A stretch of 64,000 nucleotides of DNA from Alphaproteobacteria bacterium (GTDB lineage Bacteria; Pseudomonadota; Alphaproteobacteria; JAAXGF01). Where the stretch lies: the NCBI GenBank assembly GCA_046582565.1, contig JAYGED010000075.1:4876-68875 (forward strand), in the 5' to 3' direction. Numbering within the stretch: the stretch's first letter is position 1; every line of letters begins with the position of its first letter. The position numbers and the translations under genes were made by a program. Below, piece after piece: positions 53,779 through 61,912 of this stretch. Under the pieces are notes generated by a model. That model did no database searches and was not told the origin of the DNA. It saw only the letters and a program-made list of their open reading frames with translations.

Positions 53779-53895
53779 CCCTATGCCTTCGGCTTCGGGT
53801 GGCAGGCCACCCTTGTGGACTGACATTCGAAGACGTTTAGGCGTAGGAGTGTCTCCCGAAGCTCTGTTAGGAGCGTAGGGAGACTGGTACGGCCA

Positions 53896-54075
53896 ATGTG
53901 GTACGTCTATTTTCTTCATTTGAACAATGACGACGTATACGTCGGATCAACGAATGATCTCAAGTGAAGAGTCGAATCGCATCGTCAGGGTCACGTGGTT
54001 TCGATTAAAGCTCACTTACCGGTCACGTTGAAATCGTATGTAGCCGTATTGACCGAGCAGAATGCTCAAACTTGA
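53896..54075 (+). pseudogene. Decayed GIY-YIG nuclease family gene (UPF0213/YhbQ-like) with an in-frame TGA, also C-terminally truncated
   Basis: The translation is MWYVYFLHLNNDDVYVGSTNDLK*RVESHRQGHVVSIKAHLPVTLKSYVAVLTEQNAQT*. It matches the GIY...YVG.T.DL.RR...H motif, and the stop replaces the conserved Arg (CGA to TGA). Confidence 0.5.
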
Positions 54076-54264
54076 GCGATATTTTAAATCCGGCGTCGGC
54101 CTGATCGCAATTCAACAATTTGCGGAAGAAAAACTGGCGCGGGCGTTGAGCAGCTCGAAAGCGGAACAGTTCCACGCTTCGATAGCGGTGCGGCGAATGA
54201 ATTAGCCGAACAGCTGAGCAAATTATAAGTAAGCTGTCTTCTGACTTACAGAGAGATGCAATTC

Positions 54265-54405
54265 ATGACCATACGGTCGGCTATCGATATCGGCGGCACA
54301 TATACCGACCTGCTGTTGGATCGGGGCGGGCTTTGCCGTGTATGCCCCACGAAGGCATACGGATACGCTACAACTAATCAGCACGACATCGAATGGGGAC
54401 GTTAG
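54265..54405 (+). pseudogene. Duplicated 5' fragment of the hydantoinase gene (MTIRSAIDIGGTYTDLLLDRGG...), about 85% identical at the nucleotide level to the start of the gene at 57395
   Basis: Nucleotides 54265-54330 read atgaccatacggtcggctatcgatatcggcggcacatataccgacctgctgttggatcgg, and nucleotides 57395-57460 read atgaccatacggctggctatcgatatcggcggtacttttaccgacctggtgttggatcgg. Reading frame decays after about 22 codons, and the TAG lies 1 nt before the cupin ATG. Confidence 0.55.
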
Positions 54406-54406
54406 A

Positions 54407-54787
54407 ATGACCGATAAGGTGATCACGCGGTTGCTGCCTGACGGAGCGCTGGACGGCGGCATGAAGCCGATGGGCTACATAGACCCCGACACCGTCGTTG
54501 ACGGGGTCGAATTCGACGAACGGGGGCATCTGTTCTTCACTAACGCAGCTGGCAATGTAAACGCCGGCGTGTGGCAGTGTTCGCCCTGCACGGAACAGAT
54601 CAGCGATTATCCCTATGATCAAGTTTGCTTCGTTCTCGAGGGTTCGATTACCATCACGGATAAAAGCGGCCATGCTGAGATGTTCGGGCCGGGCGATTCC
54701 TTCTCCATCCCCCGCGGCTTCAATGGTCTTTGGCAGATGACCGAGCGCTACAAGAATTATTTCGTAACCGTGGAACCGGAGCCTTGA
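54407..54787 (+). CDS. Cupin-domain protein (cupin_3/DUF861-like)
   Basis: Started at the ATG at 54407, the protein is MTDKVITRLLPDG...GVWQCSP...FVLEGSITITD...FGPGDSFSIPRGF.G.W. This start gives about 126 aa and is in frame with the track ORF 54338..54787. Confidence 0.62.
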   Translation: MTDKVITRLLPDGALDGGMKPMGYIDPDTVVDGVEFDERGHLFFTNAAGNVNAGVWQCSPCTEQISDYPYDQVCFVLEGSITITDKSGHAEMFGPGDSFSIPRGFNGLWQMTERYKNYFVTVEPEP

Positions 54788-54846
54788 TAGCCTGATGCCG
54801 GGTGATGAGCCTATCGTCATTGCGCCAAAGAATAAGGACTTAGCAG

Positions 54847-60300: not shown

Positions 60301-61051
60301 CATCAATGTGCCGATCACCTATGCCCAGGCCTACGCCTCATTCGGCATTCGCTGCGTGGTCGGAAGCTCAATCCCCAACAACACGGGCTCCCTGTCGCCA
60401 ATCCAAATCACAGCCCCCGAGGGCTGTATCCTCAACGCCCCGAGGCCGGCCGCGGTTACCGTGCGCCATGTGATCGGCCAGATGCTGCCCGACGTGGTGC
60501 TCGGCGCGCTTGAGAAGGCGCAGCCGGGGATCGCCCCCGCCGAGGGCTCGTCAAGCCTGTGGAATCCCATGCTGTCGGGCGGACACGGCATGGTCGGCGA
60601 TCATGAGTACGGCGACGCGCTGCCCTTCTCGGTGACCGTGTTTCATTCCGGCGGAACCGGCGCCCGGCCGACCAAACACGGCCTGTCGGCGACTGCCTTC
60701 CCTTCCGGCGTGCGCAATACCCCGGTCGAGATCACCGAATCCATCGCGCCGATCCTGTATATGCGCAAGGAATACCGAACCGGCTCCGGCGGGGACGGGT
60801 CGTACCGGGGCGGCGACGGCCAGGTCATCGAAATCGAGCATGCCCAGGGCGCGCCCTTTGCGGTGTTCGCCCTGTTCGACAGGATCGACCACCCGGCCCG
60901 GGGCCGCAATGGCGGCGGCAATGGAAAGCCCGGCCAGATTCGCCTGGCCAGCGGCGCCACCCTCAAGGGCATGGGCAAACAAATCGTCCCCGCCGGCGAC
61001 CGCCTGATCCTGAAACTCCCCGGCGGCGGCGGCTTGGGCAAGCCCAAATGA
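57395..61051 (+). CDS. Fused hydantoinase/oxoprolinase A-B (HyuA-HyuB, 5-oxoprolinase-like ATP-dependent amidohydrolase)
   Basis: The protein is 1218 aa. The N-terminal 700 aa or so form a Hydantoinase_A region (MTIRLAIDIGGTFTDL...), and the C-terminal 500 aa or so form a Hydantoinase_B region (...DPWHGTGHL.D...). Confidence 0.85.
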   Translation: MTIRLAIDIGGTFTDLVLDRDGTRTATKLLTTPERPADGIMQGIEQILGESETNLGDVDLILHGTTLATNALIERKGARTALIVTEGHRDSVEMAYENRFDQYDINAERPPPLVPRALRLPVAERINFKGEILTPLDEQSVRALIPDLREAGVESVAIGLLHAYANPAHENRVGVIIAEALPELSISLSSDVCPEIREYERQSTTCANAYIQRLMAGYLTDLEQRLAADNFHCPLLLMTSGGNVVTVETAVRYPIRLVESGPAGGAIMAAHIARRLGEDSVFSFDMGGTTAKICLIDHGEPQLSRGFEVARAHRFMKGSGMPIKVPVVEMVEIGAGGGSIASVDDLARIRVGPESAASDPGPACYGLGGDRPTVTDANLIAGRLDGEHFAGGRMSLDGAAAETAVRREIGEPLSLQTIDGALGILEVVDENMASAARVHAVERGEEIEGRTLIAFGGAGPLHAARLAEKLSIDRIIVPNNAGVGSAIGFLLAPVAYEVARSSYMRLDEFDPAPINAAFEAMAAEAEAVVRLGAANEELTERRYAFARYVGQGHEIKIVAPVRTLGKDDGEALRLAFETAYGEQYGRAVPSLAVEVLTWSLTLSAPSPAMDGSASETPTPRKPQAEGVRSMRLPGRGAEMDAKTYDRTALAAGDHMAGPAAITEAQTTTIVPDGFTARLNGDGDIILERAGARTGVVPEGAVRNQILWDRLIAIVEEQAQSIIRTAFSTTVREAGDLSAGLFDLRGRMLAQAVTGTPGHVNAMAAAVLFFMEKYPISTMAEGDVFVTNDPWHGTGHLFDFTVVSPVFVKGAAVGLFASTVHVVDIGGPGFGPDAGQVYEEGLCIPIMHLFRGGVANESLFDIVRANVREPVQVTGDLYSLAASNGVGAARLAALMSEFGLNGLESIGDHIIEKSRAAMIDHIRALPPGRYSNAMTVDGYESPVHIESQLTVSDEGIEVDFNGSSAMSPYGINVPITYAQAYASFGIRCVVGSSIPNNTGSLSPIQITAPEGCILNAPRPAAVTVRHVIGQMLPDVVLGALEKAQPGIAPAEGSSSLWNPMLSGGHGMVGDHEYGDALPFSVTVFHSGGTGARPTKHGLSATAFPSGVRNTPVEITESIAPILYMRKEYRTGSGGDGSYRGGDGQVIEIEHAQGAPFAVFALFDRIDHPARGRNGGGNGKPGQIRLASGATLKGMGKQIVPAGDRLILKLPGGGGLGKPK

Positions 61052-61105
61052 ATTAAGTAAGGTGTCCCCTTAATTATCTCTATTATTGGGTCACCTTACT
61101 TAATT
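61051..61105. repeat. REP-like palindromic hairpin upstream of the RAYT gene
   Basis: The arms aattaagtaaggtgtcccc and gggtcaccttacttaatt are imperfect inverted repeats of about 18 bp with an 18-nt spacer. The element starts at the hydantoinase stop codon. Confidence 0.75.
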
Positions 61106-61141
61106 ATGGACGGTTTAGCATCCCGCCGATAACCTCCTAAT

Positions 61142-61819
61142 ATGGTACGAATAGCGCGCATCGTAGTACCGGGTCTTCCGCATCATGTGACCCAGCGGGG
61201 CAACCGGCGTCAGGACAGTTTCTTCCGTGATGAGGATTACCGGGCCTACCAGGACCTGATGGCCGAATGGTGCGCCCATTATGGCGTGGCGATATGGGCC
61301 TATTGCCTGATGCCCAATCACGTCCACTTGATCGCCGTTCCCGAAACCGAGGCGGCCCTCAGGCAAGCCATAGGCGAGGCGCACCGGCGCTATACACGGC
61401 GCGTCAATTTTCGCGAAGGCTGGCGGGGGCATCTGTGGCAAGGTCGGTTTGCCTCGTTCCCGATGGATGAGCGCCATCTGCTGGCGGCGGCGCGTTATGT
61501 AGAGTTGAACCCGGTGCGCGCCGGTATAACGAAGCGACCCGAGGATTATCTTTGGAGCAGCGCTCACGCACATCTCGCGGGGCAGGATGATCGGTTGGTC
61601 AAAGTCGGCCCGCTCCTCGATGCGGTGGGAGATTGGGCGACGTTTCTCGCCGGGGGATTGGACGAAACCGAACGCGATGCTCTACGACGCCATGAGAACA
61701 GCGGCCGTCCGCTCGGCAACGACGCGTTTATCGGGCAGCTGGAGTCTATTCTCGGACGAACTTTGAAGAAGAAAAATCCGGGTGCGAAACCCAGGCGCGC
61801 TATCAACGAATATGATTAA
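61142..61819 (+). CDS. REP-associated tyrosine transposase (RAYT, IS200/IS605-like Y1 HuH transposase family)
   Basis: The 225-aa protein has the HuH motif (PNHVHLI) and a conserved downstream Tyr region, and it is flanked by REP hairpins. Confidence 0.78.
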   Translation: MVRIARIVVPGLPHHVTQRGNRRQDSFFRDEDYRAYQDLMAEWCAHYGVAIWAYCLMPNHVHLIAVPETEAALRQAIGEAHRRYTRRVNFREGWRGHLWQGRFASFPMDERHLLAAARYVELNPVRAGITKRPEDYLWSSAHAHLAGQDDRLVKVGPLLDAVGDWATFLAGGLDETERDALRRHENSGRPLGNDAFIGQLESILGRTLKKKNPGAKPRRAINEYD

Positions 61820-61886
61820 GGGGACACCTTACTTAATAAGGCGAGCGTTATCGTTATTGGGAATTAAGTAAGGTGTCCCCTTAATT
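61816..61886. repeat. REP-like palindromic hairpin downstream of the RAYT gene
   Basis: The arms attaaggggacaccttacttaat and attaagtaaggtgtccccttaat are a perfect inverted repeat of about 22 bp with a 24-nt spacer. The left arm overlaps the RAYT stop codon, and the core sequence is the same as in the upstream REP. Confidence 0.8.
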
Positions 61887-61912
61887 AGGCGGGCTGTGTA
61901 AGCGCGACTGAC

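Follow-up and report, generated by a model that had tools for sequence, protein, structure and literature searches.

The 8.1-kb interval that separates tRNA-Ser(CGA) from the DUF1674 gene in the 64-kb window, by which we mean the whole stretch of DNA analysed, is probably a patchwork built stepwise around a resident gene, hydAB, rather than an island integrated at the tRNA gene. The features of the site are as follows.

53689–53778, + strand: tRNA-Ser(CGA), divergent from rplU (ARAGORN; Rfam tRNA, 58 bits; 3' end and a 46-nt segment of the body unchanged in seven metagenome contigs)
53779–53890, no strand: ancestral post-tRNA spacer, with its ortholog between tRNA and hydAB in contig L107 (blastn HSP and pairwise alignment)
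53896–54120, + strand: GIY-YIG pseudogene, about 75 codons, three in-frame stops (translation; Pfam GIY-YIG)
54183–54264, + strand: leader of ancestral hydAB with its ribosome-binding region, separated from the gene today by the module (alignment to contig L112)
54265–54330, + strand: hydAB relic covering the first 22 codons, 66 nt (59/66 positions match the present start of the gene)
54331–57383, + strand: inserted three-gene module (Cupin_3, DMF_alpha-like, DMFase-beta-like), 3.05 kb (Pfam; absent in relatives)
54407–54787, + strand: Cupin_3 gene (Pfam)
54847–55146, + strand: DMF_alpha-like gene, 99 aa (PF26354 DMF_alpha recorded for an identical protein)
55173–57383, + strand: DMFase-beta-like DMFA2_C/LamG protein, 736 aa (Pfam)
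57395–61051, + strand: hydAB, fused hydantoinase/oxoprolinase A and B, 1218 aa (Pfam Hydant_A_N, Hydantoinase_A, Hydant_A_C and Hydantoinase_B)
61051–61105, no strand: REP doublet (inverted pair), immediately 3' of the hydAB stop codon
61142–61819, + strand: RAYT, REP-associated tyrosine transposase of the Y1/HUH family, 225 aa (Pfam Y1_Tnp, E 4.8e-14)
61812–61887, no strand: second REP doublet, overlapping the RAYT stop codon
61888–61911, + strand: relic, 24 nt with the stop codon, of the 3' end of ancestral hydAB (17/24 match to contig L110)
61913–62077, − strand: DUF1674 gene, 54 aa as called, convergent with hydAB (Pfam DUF1674; gene calls)
62100–63425, + strand: rsmB, 16S rRNA methyltransferase, right-hand core flank (Pfam NusB and Methyltr_RsmB-F; 441-aa gene call)

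All the features listed in a preliminary description of this DNA were found, in place or nearly so. The decayed GIY-YIG gene matched its Pfam family once the three stops were masked (E 8.2e-8), the hydantoinase gene fragment proved to be the 66-nt relic of the hydAB start, the layout of the tight, catabolic-looking four-gene operon was borne out by its Pfam domains and by gaps of 59, 26 and 11 nt between cupin, alpha, beta and hydAB, and the REP-flanked RAYT is a Y1_Tnp gene between two inverted REP doublets. Also real is the gene-poor stretch that follows the tRNA, although it measures about 630 bp (53779–54406) and not 450 bp.

The site was compared with its counterparts in metagenomic contigs from genus-level relatives (about 80–88% nucleotide identity), several of which are short (2.8 kb for L107 and 4.3 kb for L112). 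In L110 and L106 (80–84% nucleotide identity), the alignment covered rplU/tRNA-Ser up to 53779, resumed at 57391 or 57394 and ran to 61047, and continued over 61888–63434, with nothing matching 53885–57390 or 61051–61887. In both contigs hydAB thus lies between tRNA-Ser and DUF1674, contrary to the expectation that rplU/tRNA-Ser would directly precede DUF1674 and rsmB in relatives. L107 carries the tRNA, a 140-nt spacer and then hydAB; L111 has the order hydAB, DUF1674, rsmB, rpe; and DUF1674 directly abuts hydAB in L110, L106 and L111. L112, the closest relative (hydAB 88% identical in nucleotides and 89% in amino acids), completes the five syntenic hydAB orthologs, with the native leader directly 5' of the gene. 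As shown by synteny, the genus-level ancestral order would be rplU(−), tRNA-Ser(+), a short spacer, hydAB(+), DUF1674(−) and rsmB(+). The amino acid identity of hydAB to L110 (81.8%) is in line with that of Obg (82.5%) and RsmB (80.0%), so that hydAB looks like a vertically inherited, ancestral resident of the site. At 3.66 kb it makes up nearly half of the supposed island, and a single insert of about 8 kb does not agree with its presence in sister lineages, where it diverges like core genes.

By contrast, the module, the RAYT-REP unit and the GIY-YIG gene were all missing at the corresponding site in the nearest relatives. The accessory character proposed for the interval consequently stands for these three lineage-specific gains and fails for hydAB, leaving the island interpretation overall partly supported. 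The gains are fixed, being present in every contig of the window species that reaches them, and are for this reason considered old. To the left of tRNA-Ser, rplU, rpmA, obg, proB and proA lie on the − strand, and this side had been taken as one half of a conserved housekeeping block split by the insert. Among 80 more distant genomes (RsmB 47–67% identical), however, the two flanks were unlinked: any of L21, L27 or Obg was encoded within up to 10 kb on each side of rsmB in 0/80, and tRNA-Ser(CGA) stood near rsmB in the window's arrangement in 0/80. A single genome of the 80 (L067) had this tRNA about 5.7 kb upstream, on the opposite strand and without L21.

At the 5' end of hydAB, the leader now found upstream of the module was 79% identical over 134 nt to the native leader of L112, and a REP-like element within it (54226–54248; core TAAGTAAGCTGTC) was conserved at position 163 of that contig. 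Positions 54261–54330 were 89% identical to 57391–57460, which constitutes the longest direct repeat found in the region. The left junction of the module falls inside hydAB codons and is separated from the leader REP-like element upstream by 80 nt. The relic opens a 46-codon ORF (54265–54405) that terminates 1 nt ahead of the cupin ATG. Relic and current hydAB start have derived bases in common at sites 52, 54 and 66 relative to L112, L107 and L110. The duplication should therefore be younger than the L112 split, a dating that depends on few sites (7 differences in 66 nt, 3 shared derived bases); a duplication could also look young as a result of gene conversion between the two copies. No module was found between leader and hydAB in L112, L107, L110, L106 or L111.

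The module itself appears to be a portable unit. Homologs with 79–83% nucleotide identity and unrelated neighbours covered 54377–57165 in L101 (to the contig end) and 54384–57384 in L103, and the cupin/alpha/beta or alpha/beta set recurred in unrelated contexts in L101, L102, L103 and L113; in these four contexts hydAB never follows the module, and no RAYT stands beside it. The copy in L102 is adjacent to five IS transposase genes. Members of the module family were also carried by 77 plasmids, with identities of ≤44%.

At the opposite end of hydAB, the best NCBIfam match of the RAYT was REP_Tyr_transpos (73 bits against a cut-off of 80), and its sequence contains an HVH motif and the YVELNP tyrosine. 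The REP 22-mer occurs in 4 copies in the window against 0 expected, and the only five REP or REP-like copies of the 64 kb are all at this locus. In L112 one degenerate REP occupies the position that the doublet has in the window, at the 3' end of hydAB. The 24-nt relic beyond the second doublet is 17/24 identical to the L110 hydAB 3' end and differs from the current copy at 8/24 positions; a scan of 127,954 positions, both strands counted, gave one further match of at least 17/24, at the real hydAB 3' end. The relic lies 1 nt from the DUF1674 stop, and the corresponding gap after hydAB in the sisters is 2 nt. Identical RAYT proteins were found only in this context. An ortholog (81%) with the same REP family was located between dsrE and COQ7 in L114, and the RAYT unit thus seems to move independently of the module. 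L114 and L111 come from one sample and may be different genomes.

We propose that the interval arose by three changes, independent of each other in the window lineage, in an order of events resting on five lineages. A REP-RAYT-REP unit would have landed at the hydAB 3' end and left a decayed 24-nt copy beside DUF1674, probably before the L112 split, since L112 keeps a REP at the same spot. A small GIY-YIG gene would have entered the tRNA-hydAB spacer and later decayed; it is specific to the window lineage, being absent from the L107 spacer, and the same stops occur in a contig of the same species (L105). After the L112 split, the 3.05-kb module would have been spliced in about 66 nt into hydAB, with the hydAB start duplicated by about 66–77 nt, so that the old leader and 22 codons stayed upstream of the module and intact hydAB now begins 11 nt past the beta stop codon. 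The true breakpoints would accordingly lie inside the two ends of hydAB, at nt 66 and at the stop codon. A recombinase, terminal repeats and an att site are all absent at the joins, which argues against site-specific recombination or transposition; we infer illegitimate recombination, with or without a homologous anchor. A donor carrying a hydAB anchor beside the module was not found. The locus would thus represent ordinary genome plasticity that can be reconstructed with unusual precision.

Both relics could instead stem from a single replacement, in which a related donor supplied a block (module, hydAB, REP, RAYT, REP) that was swapped for the interior of resident hydAB by illegitimate joins at both ends, leaving only its first 66 and last 24 nt. 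One event would then account for two relics that lie in the right order and orientation and bracket 54331–61887 exactly, with no need for unusually long target duplications. We nevertheless regard such a replacement as unlikely: the relics are unequally decayed (7/66 against 8/24 differences from the current copy), the REP at the hydAB 3' end of L112, which lacks the module, indicates that the two ends differ in age, and current hydAB matches the core genes in its divergence from the sisters. The derived bases common to current hydAB and the 5' relic would moreover call for a donor of nearly the same lineage, and in none of the contexts inspected did hydAB follow beta. Quite improbable, in our estimation, is an ancestral four-gene operon from which the sisters each lost cupin, alpha and beta through recombination of the 66-nt direct repeats with each other. 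The module could be deleted precisely by way of its flanking repeats of about 70 nt, and a restored site would look like one never occupied, but one gain and several losses (at least in L112, in L107 and in the L110/L106/L111 group) would be needed against a single gain. The L112 leader shows no relic or scar, and the three shared derived bases place the duplication after the L112 split unless gene conversion took place.

An old, degraded island of about 8 kb, integrated site-specifically at the tRNA-Ser(CGA) 3' end with subsequent loss of integrase and att repeats, would fit the start of the accessory genes downstream of this end, the dead GIY-YIG gene there, the variation of the post-tRNA sequence among four groups of relatives and a GC content lowered over the first 1.4 kb (0.51–0.56 for 53779–54406 against 0.63 for the whole window). 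The low GC of the cupin gene, however, is a property of that gene, which has 56% GC in L101 too against a locus mean of 64% there, and the two large genes, DMFase-beta-like and hydAB, are host-typical, with a GC3 of 0.84 each, at or above the window mean of 0.76, and a codon-use z-score of +1.1 for hydAB. The negatives already recorded in the preliminary description held on targeted search: an integrase is absent from the region, where coding space is fully accounted for and leaves no room for one, and no copy of the tRNA 3' half was found in 53791–62400 (12/12 to 16/20 matches), with counts not above those of shuffled sequences. In addition, a single blastn HSP between L107 318–1620 and window 52595–53884 spans rpmA, the tRNA and 105 nt beyond; because these 105 nt are orthologous, no insertion junction lies at the tRNA 3' end. 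Together with hydAB standing inside the supposed island in sisters at core-like divergence, and with breakpoints at hydAB nt 66 and stop codon, these results largely refute integration of one island at the tRNA, which we rejected as highly improbable. Equally little credence is given to the proposal that the operon was imported or assembled by the RAYT through mobilisation of DNA lying between REP-like hairpins. REP-like cores do bracket the segment (54226; 61053–61885), all five window copies are here, and the L114 locus indicates that the unit has moved on this timescale. The leader element and the 3' REP, however, already surround hydAB alone in L112, the RAYT stands at the opposite hydAB end from the module, whose left junction is not at a REP and whose other contexts lack a RAYT, and RAYTs are described as mostly single-copy, vertically inherited genes that act on REPINs (PMC5581495).

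Under stepwise assembly around hydAB, the former hydAB promoter would now drive the four-gene operon, and the relic ORF could couple translation to the cupin ATG, since its stop lies 1 nt before it. The operon would pair an Fe-dependent amidase of the DMFase family with an ATP-dependent enzyme of the hydantoinase/oxoprolinase family, with a likely predicted role in the release of carbon and nitrogen from N-substituted or cyclic amides. The beta-hydAB adjacency was unseen in the four other module contexts examined, and the 11-nt spacing is the only hint that the amidase and HydAB may be linked in function.

In common with tRNA-associated islands, which have a tyrosine integrase and att repeats of the tRNA 3' end, the interval has lineage-specific accessory genes 3' of a tRNA, lower GC at its start and a variable tRNA flank; it differs in lacking both integrase and att repeat, in its ancestral tRNA-proximal 105 nt, in junctions placed inside the ends of a resident gene and in the vertical descent of nearly half its length. 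Homology-facilitated illegitimate recombination and other illegitimate insertion join foreign genes without a recombinase, terminal repeats or a site-specific target, and recipient sequence is duplicated or deleted over a short length where the pieces meet. The window joins resemble these processes in all of this, but their duplications are long (66–77 nt and 24 nt), and sequence does not show the process itself.

The module resembles DmfA1A2 of Paracoccus sp. DMF (PDB 6LVB; PMC7686228) in having a small alpha gene directly 5' of a beta gene of about 740 aa. The window beta matches the DmfA1A2 large subunit over its full length (E 7e-158) and conserves all three Fe ligands, Y399, Y440 and E521. 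The alpha protein has 99 aa against about 15 kDa in DmfA1A2 and gave no phmmer match to the solved small subunit, and the Cupin_3 gene upstream in the window's subfamily is a further difference. The same search also matched beta to an N-acetyl-(R)-beta-phenylalanine acylase structure (PDB 8HUY, E 1.1e-140), and homology therefore does not reveal the substrate. Within the ATP-dependent hydantoinase/oxoprolinase family (N-methylhydantoinase, 5-oxoprolinase, caprolactamase CapAB and acetophenone carboxylase), the window hydAB has all four Pfam domains in the usual order and is fused as in oxoprolinase-type proteins of roughly 1200 aa. It falls far under every NCBIfam equivalog cut-off (CapA 489 against 1000 bits) and hence in no characterised subfamily, and its recruitment behind an amidase module sets it apart from the family.

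Lastly, the RAYT shares with REPIN-RAYT systems (Bertels and Rainey 2011, PMC3116915; Bertels et al. 2017, PMC5581495) a Y1/HUH transposase with HVH and catalytic tyrosine, single-copy occurrence in all contigs seen, inverted REP doublets on both sides and a gene-plus-REP architecture kept in the 81% ortholog. It differs in scoring just under the NCBIfam equivalog cut-off and in its five REP or REP-like copies, which all lie at this one locus of the 64 kb and do not by themselves amount to a genome-wide REPIN population. Related contigs, moreover, have the unit at differing loci, and a 24-nt duplicate of its target follows it.

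The interval 53779-61912, between tRNA-Ser(CGA) and the DUF1674 and rsmB genes, is a real feature that had been described accurately: the tRNA, the gene-poor DNA, a pseudogene, a hydantoinase gene fragment, a four-gene operon, a REP-flanked REP-associated tyrosine transposase (RAYT) gene and core genes on both flanks, all listed in the preliminary description, were recovered. The gene-poor stretch had been put at 450 bp and measures about 630 bp.

Features of the interval and its flanks
left of the tRNA, all (-): rplU, rpmA, obg, proB, proA and nadD
53689-53778 (+): tRNA-Ser(cga), found with ARAGORN; sole tRNA in the window
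directly right of the tRNA, ~630 bp (628 nt non-coding): gene-poor stretch, GC 0.51-0.56 against 0.63 for the window
from 53896, 225 nt: GIY-YIG pseudogene with three in-frame stops (Pfam GIY-YIG, E 8e-8 with the stops masked)
54261-54330, 70 nt: copy of the hydAB start, 89% identical to 57391-57460
54407-54787 (+): Cupin_3 gene (Pfam)
54847-55146 (+): gene for a 99-aa protein, PF26354 DMF_alpha in the collection's precomputed Pfam hits
55173-57383 (+): gene for a 736-aa LamG/DMFA2_C protein (Pfam), here DMF beta
57395-61051 (+): hydAB, 1218 aa, fused hydantoinase/oxoprolinase A and B domains (Pfam)
61142-61819: gene for a 225-aa Y1_Tnp protein (RAYT), between two inverted REP doublets
right of the RAYT-REP unit: DUF1674 (-), then rsmB (Pfam)

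A Pfam scan of all genes in 53779-61912 returned the cupin, DMF alpha, DMF beta, HydAB and Y1_Tnp only; as had been remarked from the sequence, there was no integrase or recombinase among them. The 628-nt non-coding stretch holds the 225-nt GIY-YIG pseudogene and the old hydAB leader, which contains no riboswitch or known sRNA, the tRNA being the only Rfam match in 53400-62300. Promoter-like sites (4 against a shuffle mean of 2.7) and terminator-like sites (13 against 6.3, sd 2.7) were near shuffle means and uninformative. Elsewhere in the window, gene calls for rplU/L21 (52938-53459, -) vary between 167, 173 and 179 aa among contigs that elsewhere match the window at 99% identity or more, a length polymorphism in 6-codon steps that presumably lies in a low-complexity C-terminal extension. 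Internal repeats of ~170-180 nt (43191-43557; secondary blastn matches of 88-91%) lie within a long - strand gene, 41974-43911, for a Polysacc_deac_2 protein whose ORF is 645 aa in the window and was called as 689 aa in other contigs.

The interval had been taken to split a conserved housekeeping block. Species-representative genomes scanned with RsmB gave 80 loci of 47-67% identity (the nearest at 67%), and within at most 10 kb on each side of rsmB none of these carried L21, L27, Obg, the cupin, DMF alpha or beta, HydAB or RAYT. tRNA-Ser(cga) was found in one of the 80, on the opposite strand and without L21, while DUF1674 often adjoined rsmB. As L21, L27 and Obg are not near rsmB in these loci, the two flanks are unlinked and do not form a conserved block at this depth, which is also too distant to resolve the insert. 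Searches for proteins identical to L27, DUF1674 and RAYT yielded same-species contigs from some ten samples. Where these overlap the window they share at least 99% identity with it, and each keeps the same gene order over the part it covers; no empty-site variant occurred among them, and in the population sampled this arrangement is fixed.

Relatives at genus level were more informative. Seven contigs were retrieved from metagenomes with a 46-nt segment of the tRNA body as query, and were aligned to the window and read; all relatives compared are metagenomic contigs, some of them short, and the site counts are small. In two of these, L110 and L106 (80-84% nt), the order is obg, rpmA, rplU, tRNA-Ser, a 260-nt spacer, hydAB, DUF1674 and rsmB, the stop codons of hydAB and DUF1674 being 2 nt apart, with neither the three-gene module (cupin, DMF alpha and beta) nor RAYT. 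In both, the tRNA is thus followed by a spacer and hydAB rather than directly by DUF1674 and rsmB. For relative L107 a single HSP covers window 52595-53884, running from rpmA across the tRNA to 105 nt past it, and hydAB of L107 starts ~40 nt later. L111, found via a hydAB homolog, carries hydAB, DUF1674, rsmB and rpe behind a different left flank of AsnC regulator and sulfite reductase genes. The closest relative, L112 (hydAB 88% nt, 89% aa), has directly 5' of hydAB a leader that aligns to window 54183-54264; this alignment with the window's upstream copy runs on through the first ~61-66 nt of hydAB and then diverges, whereas from there on L112 stays aligned with the current hydAB. An empty site for the whole interval was not found, hydAB being at the site in L110, L106, L107, L111 and L112; only 53885-57390 and 61051-61887 are absent from these five. 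Upstream of hydAB in L111 (~9640-9900) lies an inverted repeat with arms of ~33 nt (ATACCAAGGGTCGTTAATAAAGACTCATAGAGA / TCTCTATGGGTCTTTATTAACGACCCTTGGTAT) enclosing ~200 nt, the right arm of which also opens contig L112 (1-60); the repeat resembles a MITE or a structured RNA element.

The tRNA 3' end could be ruled out as a junction, as one unbroken HSP with L107 takes in orthologous sequence up to 105 nt past it; the interval adjoins the tRNA, yet its first lineage-specific base lies at ~53885-53890. The preliminary description had seen no att direct repeat, and a search for a copy of the tRNA 3' end agreed with it: the 26-mer at that end, with up to 3 mismatches, matched itself only, and the 3' half of the tRNA had 0 matches in 53791-62400 at thresholds from 12/12 to 16/20 (shuffle means 0-0.35). 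An anomaly in base composition was confirmed for part of the interval, GC of 0.51-0.57 being limited to 53.75-55.25 kb, but the interval as a whole is not atypical. GC3 is 0.84 (z +1.3) for DMF beta and hydAB against a window mean of 0.76 (sd 0.06), with codon-use scores above the mean, and 0.65-0.67 for the cupin and RAYT genes; these codon values cover well-defined genes only, a few short genes having been mis-stranded by the greedy caller (e.g. 54817-55134). Because the cupin gene is equally GC-poor (56%) in L101, another module-bearing contig with a locus average of 64%, its low GC is a property of the gene and no sign of recent arrival.

Base 53756, inside the tRNA, is the exact end of two independent assemblies, L086 and L087. 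Strain heterogeneity at an att site was considered as the cause and rejected, because at least one of the two samples also contains a sister species whose tRNA is identical, and this breaks the assembly graph. Contigs L109 and L110 both come from sample Ga0066376, and such a sister species in the same sample is the likely reason for the contig end at 53756 there. Right after the identical tRNA-Ser 3' end, four unrelated types of sequence were observed, namely those of the window and L107, of L110 and L106, of L108 and of L104. L104 and L108, two different relatives from one sample, share an identical ~130-nt stretch ~120 nt past the tRNA at which both sequences end (tRNA flanks: L104 2482-2712, L108 9864-10095, L110 2191-2450), and which may represent a mobile or repeated element common to both.

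The amino-acid identity of HydAB to its L110 counterpart (81.8%) matches that of Obg (82.5%) and RsmB (80.0%), and therefore hydAB is best regarded as resident and vertically inherited at this site, again with no junction at the tRNA 3' end. Its Hydant_A_N, Hydantoinase_A, Hydant_A_C and Hydantoinase_B domains all pass the Pfam cut-offs. In the contig of sample ERZ23486799 (L082, L093, L117), a G-to-T change at hydAB nt 2143 (window ~59537) was observed, and gene calling yields two products there, of 714 and 489 aa; the gene may have become a pseudogene, or the split, near the HydA/HydB boundary, may be tolerated.

Both ends of hydAB have left relics. The 5' relic (54265-54330, 66 nt) is identical to the current hydAB start at 59/66 positions, six of the seven differences being changes in the relic alone, and, together with the leader before it, this relic is where hydAB originally began. 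At sites 52, 54 and 66 relic and current copy have derived bases in common that are missing in L112, L107 and L110; because these three bases are shared, the duplication and the module insertion are younger than the split from L112, barring gene conversion. The 3' relic (61888-61911) matches the L110 hydAB 3' end at 17/24 positions, and among 127,954 positions scanned in the window the only other match of at least 17/24 was the real hydAB 3' end. Its stop codon lies 1 nt from that of DUF1674, like the geometry in the sisters. The 3' relic has decayed further than the 5' relic, differing from the current copy at 8/24 positions against 7/66. As L112 already has a degenerate REP directly 3' of its hydAB stop, the 3' event looks older than the 5' event.

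The protein encoded at 61142-61819 scored 53 bits against Pfam Y1_Tnp (cut-off 23), had NCBIfam REP_Tyr_transpos as best match (73 bits, below the cut-off of 80) and contains HVH and YVELNP motifs. Its gene is flanked by REP doublets in inverted pairs (61053-61103 and 61815-61885), the arrangement of a REP-RAYT unit, and the REP 22-mer occurs 4 times against none expected. All five REP or REP-like cores of the 64-kb window are at the hydAB/RAYT locus, four beside RAYT and one in the old leader, where it is conserved in L112. The identical RAYT protein was found in one context in all 22 contigs read, while an ortholog of 81% identity, with REPs of the same family and the same flanking architecture, lies between dsrE and COQ7 in L114, a contig from the same sample as L111.

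Homology of the module runs from 54377 or 54384 to 57384, limits that almost coincide with the interval between the 5' relic and the current hydAB start, with 83% nt identity to L101 (to that contig's end, window 57165) and 79% to L103. The module or its alpha/beta pair has unrelated neighbours in other contigs: TetR, aminotransferase, amine oxidase and GCV_T genes in L101, ABC transporters, Gln-synt_C and PhyH in L103, a DAO oxidoreductase in L113 and five IS transposase genes in L102. In the last (12849-22235), an alpha/beta pair (79% identical) without cupin is followed by IS110, mutator, DDE_Tnp_1, rve and IS1595-type transposase genes, which suggests that in other settings composite mobile DNA carries the pair. 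Beta followed by hydAB, the order of a possible donor, was not found in L101, L102, L103, L113 or the list of hydAB homologs; P0060 and P0223 are on the same 266-kb contig and not adjacent. The beta protein has more than 3600 homologs, and no close plasmid-borne relative was present among the 77 plasmids matched, all at 44% identity or less. A hairpin with a 9-bp stem (CCGTGTATGCC / GGCATACGG) was observed at the module's left junction (54335-54363), in sequence that neither the hydAB relatives nor the module copies of L101 and L103 share.

We consider stepwise gains around a resident hydAB to be the best supported model and probably the correct one. According to this model, the RAYT-REP unit would have arrived at the hydAB 3' end, a GIY-YIG gene would have entered the tRNA-hydAB spacer, and the amidase module would then have been spliced into the hydAB 5' end by illegitimate recombination with target duplication. 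A single replacement would account for the two relics together, but the relics have decayed unequally and L112 has the REP without the module, and we find it unlikely. Repeated loss from an ancestral four-gene operon via the 66-nt repeats would also explain relatives without the module; the derived bases shared by relic and current copy speak against it and make it improbable.

Acquisition of the module through REP/RAYT activity, raised in the preliminary description, is still harder to credit, since the module junction is not at a REP and the module occurs in other contexts without RAYT. The old, degraded island targeted to tRNA-Ser(CGA) that was also proposed there seems just as implausible: the interval does adjoin the tRNA, but integrase and att repeat are missing, the tRNA flank is ancestral and hydAB is resident. 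Both insertions at the hydAB ends adjoin a duplicated target, of 66-77 nt at the 5' end and 24 nt at the 3' end, and the segment as a whole lies between REP-like hairpins. That these duplications and hairpins are the footprint of an uncharacterised single-strand insertion process of the Y1/HUH type, linked to RAYT, is speculative and has little likelihood in our view; if true, such a process would capture foreign modules as well as move the RAYT gene, and REP-RAYT systems would now and then bring in genes and help to build operons. In a milder and likewise speculative version, the new cupin/DMFase-like/HydAB operon would encode a catabolic pathway of two steps for amides or lactams, so far undescribed, in this uncultured alphaproteobacterium.

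The locus is ordinary genome plasticity and not a tRNA-integrating island; it is not new in kind and does not overturn current understanding. It serves mainly to correct an expectation: a tRNA with accessory genes next to it need not mark an integrative island, and in this case a resident gene makes up nearly half of what was taken for the island, with no junction at the tRNA end. Of modest interest are the RAYT-REP unit at differing loci and the exactness with which the assembly of a four-gene operon can be retraced. That related contigs carry the unit at different loci, in the window with a target duplication, adds a small data point for the REPIN-RAYT field, and the module offers a clear example of how an operon grows, a portable amidase module of three genes having been added to a resident gene. 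It sits between the promoter and first 22 codons on one side and a regenerated hydAB copy on the other, the relics both dating and delimiting the event. The gap of 11 nt between beta and hydAB, together with a 46-codon relic ORF that stops 1 nt before the cupin ATG, suggests that the former hydAB promoter may now drive a single four-gene transcript.

None of the cupin, alpha, beta or HydAB proteins corresponded to an NCBIfam equivalog, HydAB reaching no equivalog cut-off. PF26354 is recorded for a protein identical to the 99-aa alpha protein, which had no hit in the local Pfam copy and no phmmer match to the solved small subunit. Because the N-acetyl-(R)-beta-phenylalanine acylase 8HUY matches the beta protein almost as well (E 1.1e-140) as 6LVB chain A does (E 7.3e-158), hydrolysis of DMF to dimethylamine and formate is not assignable from homology. 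The match to 6LVB covers query residues 4-730, the full length of the protein, and Y, Y and E are conserved at its positions Y399, Y440 and E521, the iron ligands of the Paracoccus DMFase large subunit (PMC7686228). In its full-length homology and in the residues of its 2-Tyr-1-Glu iron site, the beta protein of the window thus resembles DmfA1A2.
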